NCBI GenBank assembly: GCA_964354805.1
Contig: CAYHBD010000028.1
Location: 28,246 to 92,245 of the forward strand
Source: an uncultured archaeon
GTDB lineage: Archaea; Iainarchaeota; Iainarchaeia; Iainarchaeales; GCA-2688035
Length of the DNA stretch: 64,000 nucleotides
Reading direction: 5' to 3'
Of the stretch, positions 1 to 59,855 are shown in pieces. Positions within the stretch are counted from its first letter, which is position 1. Each line of letters opens with the position of its first letter. Made by a program: the position numbers and the translations under genes. A model generated the notes under the pieces. It was not told the DNA's origin. It did not search any database and was given only the letters and a program-made list of their open reading frames with translations.

Positions 1-249
1 GAAAAGCACGCATTCAAGTTTATGGCAAAAGAAACAGCGACAAATGCGGCAATGGACGAAGGCGGCAAACTTGTATTAAACGGGAAATTCAGCAGCCAGC
101 AGATAAACGACCTAGTTGCAAGCTACATTAACCAGTTTGTTTTATGCCCAGAATGCAAAAGGCCGGACACCGAGGTGGTTGAAAAACAGGGCGTCAGAAT
201 GCTGCACTGCGAGGCATGCGGCGCAATCAGGCCGGTAAAAGGATTGTAA
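1..249 (+). CDS. eif2b: Translation initiation factor aIF-2 beta, C-terminal part (5' end outside window)
   Basis: Frame open from base 1; C-terminal zinc ribbon CPECKRPDT...CEACGA typical of aIF-2beta. Confidence 0.93.
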   Translation, partial: EKHAFKFMAKETATNAAMDEGGKLVLNGKFSSQQINDLVASYINQFVLCPECKRPDTEVVEKQGVRMLHCEACGAIRPVKGL

Positions 250-305
250 TTTTTGGGAAAATGCGGTGAAAAGAAAAAGAGGGCAATGAAAGGATTGTAA
301 TTTTT
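238..305 (+). repeat. Gene-end echo of aIF-2beta
   Basis: AAAGGATTGTAATTTTT exact at 238-254 and 289-305; ATGCGG also at 216 and 261. Confidence 0.85.
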
Positions 306-338
306 TGAATGCAAAGGAAAGAAAAAACATTAAAGTGA

Positions 339-647
339 TTGAAGGTGGGCACTGATTTGTTTCACAAGATTCACAGCATGCAGGGAAAGCAGGTCCTGGC
401 TGTCTGCGACAAGCAAGTGGTTGGAAAGCAATTGCGGCAGGGGGAAATTGAATTCAATGTGAGCGAGCGCTTTTTCAAGGAAAAAGAACTAAGCGAAAAG
501 GAATTAAGGGAATTGCTGCATGAATTTGATAACATTAACCTTGTTGGAAACAAGGCTGTTGCAATTGCAATTGATGAAAAGATTGCATCAAAAGAAAACG
601 TAATTGAAATCCAAGGAGTAAAGCACGTTCAAATATTCAAAATCTGA
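339..647 (+). CDS. DUF424 family protein
   Basis: LAVCD..., FNVSERFF, INLVGNKAV, GVKHVQI motifs; usual neighbour of aIF-2beta. Confidence 0.85.
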   Translation: MKVGTDLFHKIHSMQGKQVLAVCDKQVVGKQLRQGEIEFNVSERFFKEKELSEKELRELLHEFDNINLVGNKAVAIAIDEKIASKENVIEIQGVKHVQIFKI

Positions 648-668
648 TTTTTTTTGGAGTTGCCCTGA

Positions 669-998
669 ATGCCCGGAAACAAAAACAGGAAGGACGGCAA
701 AGAAGAGGAGCCAATCACCAGGCTAAGGTTTCCGAGGAAGGAAGACAACGAGCAATTTGGCCTTGTAACGCAGCTTATGGGCGCAAACCAGGTTAAAGCA
801 ATTTGCCAGGATGGAAAGGAAAGAATGTGCAGGATCCCTGGCAAGCTGAGAAAAAGGGTCTGGGTAAGGGTAAACGACGTTGTCATTGTAAAAGTATGGG
901 ACTTCCAGCCAATAAAGGGAGACATAATGTGGCGCTTCTTGGGAAACCAGACAGAATGGCTGAGAAGAAAAGGAATGCTGCAAGGGCTGCCTCTGTAA
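669..998 (+). CDS. eif1a: Translation initiation factor aIF-1A
   Basis: OB fold motif C.DGKERMCRIPGKLRKRVW...WDFQ..KGDI. Confidence 0.96.
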   Translation: MPGNKNRKDGKEEEPITRLRFPRKEDNEQFGLVTQLMGANQVKAICQDGKERMCRIPGKLRKRVWVRVNDVVIVKVWDFQPIKGDIMWRFLGNQTEWLRRKGMLQGLPL

Positions 999-1122
999 AA
1001 ATTAAATTATTAGTTTTTCACCTAAGTAAAAAAAGCAATATTTAAACAGCAGTGAACACTAATTGTTTCCAGCTGAAGGCAAAATTTCCCAAGGGTTTTT
1101 TGCATCAGCAAAAAAGGCTTAG

Positions 1123-58593: not shown

Positions 58594-59370
58594 TTATGCC
58601 GCTTCGAATTTTGCTTCAAATCCTTTTTCTTTCGCGTTTTGGGTGATTGCGTTTGCAACGCTGTTCAGGCGTTTTTCCGCAACCTTGAAGTCGTGGCCCT
58701 TTGCCCTTATTTCGTATTTTCCGCCTTTTACGTAAAAAATTTCAACGCTGCCTTTTGCAGCCGCATCAATGCCTTGCAGCAAAGCGTTTTTAATCAATTC
58801 CACCCCGTTCGGCTGCAGCGAATGCAATTCAATTTTTCCGCTTACAATCCTTTCAGGAACAGTAATGCTTTTCTGCACCAAGGAAACAAGGGGCAGCCTC
58901 CATTTCGGGGCAATAGCCTGGGCTGCCTGTTCGCCCTCAGCTGCAATCTGCTGGAGCGCAAAAGGCAGCGAATCATATTCCGCCAGCAACGGAATTGCAA
59001 TAGCATTCCATGCTTCCTCAAAGCTGCTCTTTTCGCCTTGGCCAAGCAATTCAATCAATTTCTTTGCCCTCTTCAACTGCTTCCATTCCTCTATTCTGAT
59101 TCTCTGCTGTTCGCTCGAGACCTTGGTCAAGCTCAAGTCAATCTGGCCTTTCTCCTGGTTGAAGGAAAGAACCTTCGCTGCCCTGATCTGGCCCTCTCTC
59201 ACGTGGTTCCTGATGTTTTTAACCCAGGCATTCGAAATCTGGCTGATGTGAATGAAACCCTTCACATTATTGAATTCAACCAACTCAACGAACGCACCAT
59301 AATCCAAGACACGCGTAACCTTGCAGACAACTGTCTCGCCCAAAACAGGTGCAGCGCTTTCAGAAGCCAT
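58594..59370 (-). CDS. eif2a: Translation initiation factor aIF-2 alpha
   Basis: S1 domain GETVVCKV..V.DYGAFV.L.E...GFIHIS.I...WVKNIR, IDLSL. Confidence 0.93.
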   Translation of the reverse strand: MASESAAPVLGETVVCKVTRVLDYGAFVELVEFNNVKGFIHISQISNAWVKNIRNHVREGQIRAAKVLSFNQEKGQIDLSLTKVSSEQQRIRIEEWKQLKRAKKLIELLGQGEKSSFEEAWNAIAIPLLAEYDSLPFALQQIAAEGEQAAQAIAPKWRLPLVSLVQKSITVPERIVSGKIELHSLQPNGVELIKNALLQGIDAAAKGSVEIFYVKGGKYEIRAKGHDFKVAEKRLNSVANAITQNAKEKGFEAKFEAA

Positions 59371-59458
59371 TTTCAACCACCAAGCAACTTAAATGCCATA
59401 AATTTTTTGGCACCATTTCCAACTTAATTTATTAATTACTTAAAAAAATCAATTTAAA

Positions 59459-59540
59459 AAAGCCTTTTTTTCGTTAGGAAAAAAAGCCTTGGGAAAAAAT
59501 CCCCCGGCAAAGCCTTTTTTTCGTTAGGAAAAAAAACCTT
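59459..59540. repeat. Direct repeat of a 32-bp T/A-tract hairpin unit, period 50
   Basis: AAAGCCTTTTTTTCGTTAGGAAAAAAA(G/A)CCTT at 59459 and 59509, 31/32 identical. Confidence 0.9.
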
Positions 59541-59569
59541 AAAAAAAAGTGCCTACTGCAATACCCCTT

Positions 59570-59764
59570 CTACCACAGCTCTTTTACGACCTTTGCAATC
59601 GGCTTTATTTTGCTTGGGCCTGTTTCCGCAAGCAGCTGGTTGCACGCAAGGCAGCTCACCTTGGTGCTTGCTGCGCTGAAAATTATCTGCTCGTTTCCGC
59701 AGCCAGGGCACTTGACCCTCAGGAAGCTTGTTTTCGCTTTCCTGCTCAACTCTGTTTTCGGCAT
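59570..59764 (-). CDS. rps27e: 30S ribosomal protein S27e
   Basis: FLRVKCPGCGNEQIIF...V.C..C. Confidence 0.93.
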   Translation of the reverse strand: MPKTELSRKAKTSFLRVKCPGCGNEQIIFSAASTKVSCLACNQLLAETGPSKIKPIAKVVKELW

Positions 59765-59789
59765 ACCTCATCCACACTCCATCCAACAA

Positions 59790-59855
59790 TCAACTTTTTA
59801 ATAAATCATTCACGCCCAATCTCATGCTCAACTTTTTTTGGTGAATCATTCGCCC
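59790..59855 (-). repeat. Degenerate echo spanning the GINS stop codon
   Basis: TCAACTTTTT..AATCATTC..GCCC at 59790-59817 and 59828-59855. Confidence 0.55.

Follow-up and report, generated by a model that had tools for sequence, protein, structure and literature searches.

Gene-end-restoring integrative elements and homing cassettes depend on one enzyme, act at one or few targets and carry the enzyme gene inside the insert. In insertion with long target duplication, reported by Nobusato et al. 2000 and recounted in Furuta et al. 2010 (PMC2853133), restriction-modification cargo in bacteria is flanked by repeats of more than 30 bp, up to about 400 bp; the species concerned are mostly naturally competent, and no archaeal case passed the authors' screen. 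Homology-facilitated illegitimate recombination is rare and usually yields insertions of about 1 kb with deletions (PMC3240628, PMC5361080), partial duplications of 109-950 bp are described from circularised imported fragments (PMC3240628), and C-terminal displacement is known at Rhs/T6SS toxin loci (PMC3240628, PMC5361080). Microhomology-mediated tandem duplication (MTD) produces short head-to-tail copies, many of them below 50 bp, which start identical over the whole unit, are nearly neutral, are depleted from coding DNA and occur in archaea (PMC8639346, PMC13167724).

The gene-end echoes analysed here, i.e. diverged second copies of the last codons and stop codon of a gene lying just downstream of it, share with insertion with long target duplication the long variable direct repeats, the empty site in a relative and the lack of a mobility gene, whereas most of them have no cargo, only a spacer of 10-45 nt and an offset of about 50 nt, and they follow about 10% of genes. 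With homology-facilitated illegitimate recombination and C-terminal displacement they would have in common a homologous anchor, an out-of-register joint and a displaced old 3' end, but they fall into a narrow size class and occur at housekeeping and ribosomal genes rather than toxin loci. They resemble MTD in being short head-to-tail copies, but often mismatch over half of the period, and perfect copies of recent origin are very scarce. By analogy with gene-end-restoring elements, some may be viewed as a newly supplied 3' end behind which the native one has been left stranded; here, however, about 100 unrelated sites are affected, the inserts contain no enzyme gene, and neither the shared motif nor the targeting enzyme of such elements was found. 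The type of scar is known, though not in such density or with such a size signature, and no paper on such echoes in DPANN archaea was found in the mainly openly accessible literature. What is added here are genome-wide controls, an offset ruler, a missing class of young copies and the polarity of the copies between strains.

The stretch analysed (the window) comprises 64,000 nt and corresponds to C28:28246-92245 of a source assembly of 1.38 Mb that is 88.5% complete. As the nearest named homologues belong to Candidatus Diapherotrites, the host can be placed among the Iainarchaeota/DPANN archaea. Relatives were compared as contigs, namely R1 (JGI Ga0373628/SRR11721627) and R2 (from two other samples), which are 88-92% identical; the orthologues of genome G016 are too distant for polarising the copies.

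All nine gene-end echoes of the original prediction were found in the window at their stated periods, and the significance of each was assessed against 400 other-gene controls. For aIF-2beta, which takes its Pfam name via an orthologue, the last codons and stop at 238-249 (+) recur at 289-300 (+; offset 51, p = 0.0025). The KH-domain gene ends with TAA at 5045-5063 (+) and has an echo ending with TGA at 5133-5151 (+; offset 88, p = 0.01), which is also found in R1 and R2 at other spacings. The last codons of top6B at 6877-6902 (+) lie inside a 115-nt insertion relative to R1, in which top6B overlaps the start of top6A, and are echoed at 6931-6955 (+; offset 53), an echo shared with R2. The HTH-10 gene end at 10590-10614 (-) is followed by a copy at 10548-10572 (-; offset 42, p = 0.0025), more decayed in R1, and the working end of truD at 44140-44166 (+; p = 0.0025), with three silent differences from the native end, is followed by a 33-nt spacer at 44167-44199 (+), which contains an ATG and the stub MKAIELLL, and an echo at 44200-44226 (+; offset 60) adjoining the ATG of the next gene. 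The gene at 46687-49017, putatively labelled GT-C-like and with a single relative (59%) when used as query in a metagenome scan, ends with TGA at 46687-46717 (-), and its echo at 46656-46686 (-; offset 31, p = 0.005) ends with TAA. The EndoQ-like (PF27218) gene end at 57554-57592 (+; p = 0.0025) has an echo at 57597-57636 (+; offset 43-44), which takes a different form in run X1. The two remaining cases, a three-unit 44-nt array at 53484-53584 (-; p = 0.0075) after the PF27325 gene (the 53572 gene) and a diverged array of about 40-nt units at the end of GINS (59765-59857, -) with one extra unit in R1, are present but mainly intergenic three-unit arrays that include just 10-13 coding bases. Eight loci thus passed their control and top6B was marginal (p = 0.04), but GINS did not reach significance when its coding tail was considered by itself. 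All three TAA/TGA swaps described for the window were seen, at KH, GT-C-like and the +88 unit of the 53572 array; only this unit retains a stop, the +44 copy having none.

Genome-wide, alignment of the last 60 nt of each gene to the next 150 nt at a score of at least 24 detected a downstream copy of the gene's own end at 108 of 1,115 gene ends (about 1 in 10). Controls gave 10.2 (other-gene downstream sequence), 9.7 (shuffled), 12 (mid-gene) and 8 (inverted), so that the proposed comparison with shuffled and other-gene sequence returned a real, approximately tenfold excess, and at a cut-off of 30 the ratio was 59 ends to fewer than 1 in either of these two controls. Echoes are not confined to 3' ends, as start codons are affected as well (52 versus 10 in controls), a count that is rougher, like the intergenic ones, because genes were predicted with a hexamer model and some starts are uncertain.

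Between strains about 91% identical, the same junctions are empty, filled or differently filled; comparison of orthologous junctions thus revealed both empty and echo alleles, showing that the process is active. R1 has 13 echoes in 110 gene ends versus 0.6 expected. Among the window loci, it shares the KH, HTH-10, GT-C-like, 53572 and GINS echoes and lacks those of aIF-2beta, top6B, truD and EndoQ-like. Shared echoes barely differ among strains (0/29, 2/59 and 2/73), at some junctions (L32e, MCM) three or four diverged units form an array that is different in all three strains, and the inner spacer is the portion in which filled and empty strains differ. Because the genome was assembled from a metagenome and the comparison rests on contigs, chimeras of co-occurring strains might be suspected; this explanation is already largely refuted and retains next to no credibility, since the 53572 array is 100% identical over 1,043 nt in an independent run and the echoes at six genes (GT-C-like, KH, HTH-10, top6B, KaiC, PGK) recur across separate samples and assemblers. 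Taking the independent assemblies together with the empty and filled states of the strains, we concluded that gene-end echoes are genuine, being neither an assembly artefact nor a frozen relic.

Further strain differences were noted at individual loci. The L19e/L18 junction has three different spacers in three strains, and R1 (L077:13400-14700) carries two 66-nt units 3' of L19e that end in echoes of the L19e tail and appear to lengthen the N-terminus of L18 in frame. In G000, at C9:76680-77189 (L062:14681-15330), an echo copies a gene end together with the start of the next gene; as the two genes lie 1 nt apart in R2, the duplication separated them and altered the upstream C-terminus. A PEP synthase-like gene (window:34699-38850) encodes 1,383 aa compared with 863 aa in R1, which lacks approximately positions 35120-36681, probably an intein. 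The Top6A of the window shares its 90% cluster with one on a 1.19-Mb contig (P0153), possibly by transfer or because that contig is from another close relative.

Offsets peak at 45-55 nt wherever the stop codon lies, and only 5 of 107 fall below 40 nt, despite detection of 43-59% of planted events at 25-35 nt (72% at 50 nt). Since the offset is independent of the amount of coding sequence copied, the constrained length is the total displacement. Across 78 echoes the match spans about 27 coding nt, and identity drops from about 0.85 to 0.35 inside ten bases 3' of the stop. Offsets are flat modulo 3 (27/26/25), and the same values are seen in 29 cases spanning a start codon and, in frame, within loose protein termini. 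In a typical echo just half of the offset matches, the spacers are 0-60 nt and commonly 10-45 nt long, and the unit borders are too diverged for exact placement. No junction motif was shared among 43 strong echoes, in agreement with the proposal of a process rather than a repeat family. Spacers fold no more strongly than control spacers (p = 0.63), with no excess of hairpins, and a search for their sources in the genome and relatives returned one hairpin-repeat case and one cargo locus only. As a separate observation, a hairpin repeat with A/T runs, about 50 nt long and thus in the size class of the echoes, occurs at window:1070-1120 and 59465-59530. It is dispersed, with about 56 core matches in the genome, is strain-polymorphic without visible target duplication and in R1 and R2 also sits ahead of the KH start; the genome encodes two Y1 transposases at other places.

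Selection could in principle keep echoes because they act as reserve C-termini, trap readthrough or bind ribosomes, and the little change of shared echoes between strains agrees with this, as does the finding that 21 of the 55 echoes before a same-strand gene lie no more than 25 nt from its start, where they could hold a ribosome-binding site. We nevertheless regard this origin as very improbable: the offsets show no preference modulo 3, close strains lack many of the echoes, the excess is missing from most of the family genomes sampled, and retention of binding sites explains persistence at some loci but not origin. Ribosome-binding sites together with ATG were not significantly enriched in spacers (3/47 versus 6/200), while ATG alone was present in 23/47 versus 64/200. 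A stop codon is present in 64 of the 78 echoes, including 16 swaps, so the claimed retention stands as an observation, but it is compatible with neutrality: both A-to-G changes in TAA still give a stop, and the working copy itself is free to swap, so that neither the kept stops nor the TAA/TGA swaps carry much weight as evidence.

Single-base codon differences were silent in 80 of 166 cases (0.48), above the codon-blind expectation of 0.26 and that of duplication with one free copy (0.375, p = 0.005) but below the 0.67 of two working alleles, taken from 137/205 in orthologue tails; the excess over the upper bound for simple duplication (0.41) has p = 0.07. In 5' echoes, 29 of 64 differences were silent.

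At truD, the polarity of the copies can be read from the strains. In two runs the contigs are shorter here by exactly 60 nt, the echo is identical to the R1 working end at 27/27 positions, and it matches the empty strain at 8/8 diagnostic sites when the 6 nt after the stop are included. The echo is the displaced native end, and the in-gene copy with its 33-nt spacer is new; the new portion resembles a foreign allele, and the spacer stub is similar to how the next gene begins (IELL/TELL) in the distant family members G020, G021 and G004. The same polarity was found at C47:4168 (echo matching the empty strain 9 versus 2) and C47:5422 (6 versus 2), which confirms that replacement ends exist at truD and two other loci. 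The reverse polarity, in which the native end is kept, applies to MCM, GINS and the EndoQ-like gene, whose working copy is nearer to R1 than its echo. The genes have a mosaic structure built of short diverged tracts: per 60 nt, the differences average 5.2 with a variance of 19.5, private tracts measure 60-300 nt, and 43 of 95 orthologues diverge directly after the stop between strains 91% alike. Separately, a 300-nt tract of truD (window:43255-43555) with 5-10 private changes per 60 nt relative to two other strains is read as an import from a more distant donor.

We consider it somewhat more probable than not, at roughly 55%, that the echoes have no function and are scars left at junctions by recombination with DNA of diverged relatives. 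An imported piece would pair with the homologous gene in the host, and one of its ends would be joined about 50 nt back, out of register, without replacement of the resident sequence, so that a resident A-B would become A-[B'A']-B with the bracket being donor DNA. With a switch point upstream of the stop, the gene would gain a donor end and the native end would be pushed downstream, as at truD; with a switch point at the stop, the native end would stay and the echo would be foreign. The spacer would represent intergenic DNA or a next-gene start of the donor, which would account for its frequent lack of a nearby match, and the copies would decay after joining. As events elsewhere would break most genes, survivors would be limited to stops, starts, spacers and in-frame loose protein tails, and the claim that selection filters the surviving events is supported. 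The joining step may be flap ligation or integration of small circles, and the 50-nt length presumably reflects a fixed step. Histone, NucS, NurA and FEN1 are encoded in the genome, none of them tied to the echoes.

The scarcity of young perfect copies, the perfect cores, the silent share and the mosaic genes favour out-of-register homeologous import. Several results speak against it: for none of the spacers, truD included, did the genome or the fetched relatives yield a donor allele, homology-facilitated illegitimate recombination as known mostly gives insertion-deletions of about 1 kb instead of 50-nt duplications, and ComEC and DprA were absent from the Pfam-query matches (genome 88.5% complete). 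The silent share is also compatible with the upper bound for simple duplication, and the prediction of more silent changes in echoes abutting the next gene failed (0.42).

Possible, though in our view less than probable, is an endogenous MTD of about 50 nt through replication slippage or flap errors, in which copies spanning a boundary alone survive, the free middle decays, and later homologous imports or gene conversion overwrite one copy to give the replacement-like cases. The offset is position-blind, as such a process would have it, being flat modulo 3 and recurring at starts and in-frame protein tails; some loci match over the full period, arrays of three to four units vary among strains (L32e, MCM, GINS), the difference from the empty strain lies in the inner spacer, as would be expected under decay, about 29 of 132 spacers are still similar to their flanks, as decayed tandem copies would be, and MTD is reported in archaea (PMC13167724). 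Young duplicates, however, are almost missing: among about 180 non-coding duplicates with periods of 35-80, only 2 showed full-period identity of at least 90%, a class that also includes hairpin repeats and uncalled repeat genes, and in which fast reversion of perfect tandem copies and their collapse in assembly could have emptied the young end. Six duplicates have perfect cores of 23-31 nt beside an unrelated spacer. The shortage of offsets below 40 nt is at odds with the many MTD units below 50 bp, and the presence of FEN1 and the silent excess also argue against tandem duplication, although the four-fold-site divergence of 0.22 between strains allows time for neutral decay. The simple form of tandem duplication in the original prediction does not hold, given the unmatched half of the period, the rarity of near-perfect copies and the silent share.

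The other mechanism proposed originally, a dedicated cassette system that inserts cargo at gene ends and leaves echoes as scars after cargo loss, is unlikely. Start codons are spanned too, deletion of cargo should give ragged lengths and not a tight peak near 50 nt, there is neither a shared junction motif nor a hairpin spacer, and no relative examined had cargo between the copies at the window echoes. The two window loci at which a whole gene was thought to lie between copies showed no distant copy above chance in three scans. Nor was a targeting enzyme found, the searches having given just two tyrosine recombinases and a pair of Y1 transposases; off-target CRISPR spacer integration was rejected with no Cas1 found in the 88.5% complete genome, and a diversity-generating retroelement with no reverse transcriptase found and no adenine-specific changes, substitutions being symmetric (A>G 50, G>A 49).

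Cargo-filled gene ends do exist on other contigs, where about six genes have a diverged end copy of 43-212 nt located 0.7-1.8 kb downstream with accessory genes between, e.g. a MazE/PIN pair (VapBC-type) or an AAA_14/DUF4143 gene; at score 18, long-range matches numbered 14 versus 3.3, some being paralogue tails. In favour of a cassette system, C42:13494 bears both a short echo and a cargo-flanking copy, and accessory genes come and go at the truD, aRF1, dph and top6A ends among strains, yet nothing ties the short echoes to lost cargo. The cargo-filled loci agree with insertion with long target duplication: repeats of more than 30 bp enclose gene cargo at these six or so loci and not at the window echoes, no integrase or transposase families were detected among the cargo proteins scanned, and single-copy empty alleles occur at truD, aIF-2beta, EndoQ-like and others. 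Under out-of-register import, longer donor pieces would carry accessory genes and may have produced these few cases by the same route. In other strains, different accessory genes (toxin-antitoxin pairs, a glycosyltransferase) occupy the positions after aRF1, dph, top6A and truD, and orphan genes without Pfam match at window:42283-42873, 11641-12540 and 55762-56325 are absent from these places in R1. A free-standing LAGLIDADG_3 gene (window:20506-21576, -) is convergent with and overlaps the end of 19419-20528, which we take to be a myo-inositol-1-phosphate synthase by resemblance; no flanking copy was found at this LAGLIDADG_3 gene.

In a survey of the family based on 80-400-kb genome samples, in which kin are not independent, G001 of another genus had echoes at 14/121 gene ends versus 1.4 expected, with offsets mostly of 38-59 nt, whereas the excess was modest in G035 (7/184 versus 0.6) and G016 (10/353 versus 2.4), and most of 14 other genomes, several represented by small samples, were near background. 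The echoes help explain why spacers are longer than in compact relatives (median gap between genes of 92 nt versus 52 nt in G016), including ribosomal operons, where overlapping genes have been pulled apart, and for annotators such tails are neither mini-genes nor attachment sites. As scars, they would record DNA exchange in an uncultured small-genome archaeon, and because the trait is patchy, lineages with and without echoes can be compared by gene presence for an enzyme behind the 50-nt step. It is a speculative and rather doubtful proposition that some Iainarchaeota possess an undescribed pathway splicing short DNA of relatives beside the homologous site with a ruler of about 50 nt, for which fixed-length uptake products, nuclease products or small circles would be candidates. 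If true, the like offset in G001 and the absence of echoes from most family members would mark the lineages that carry the enzyme.
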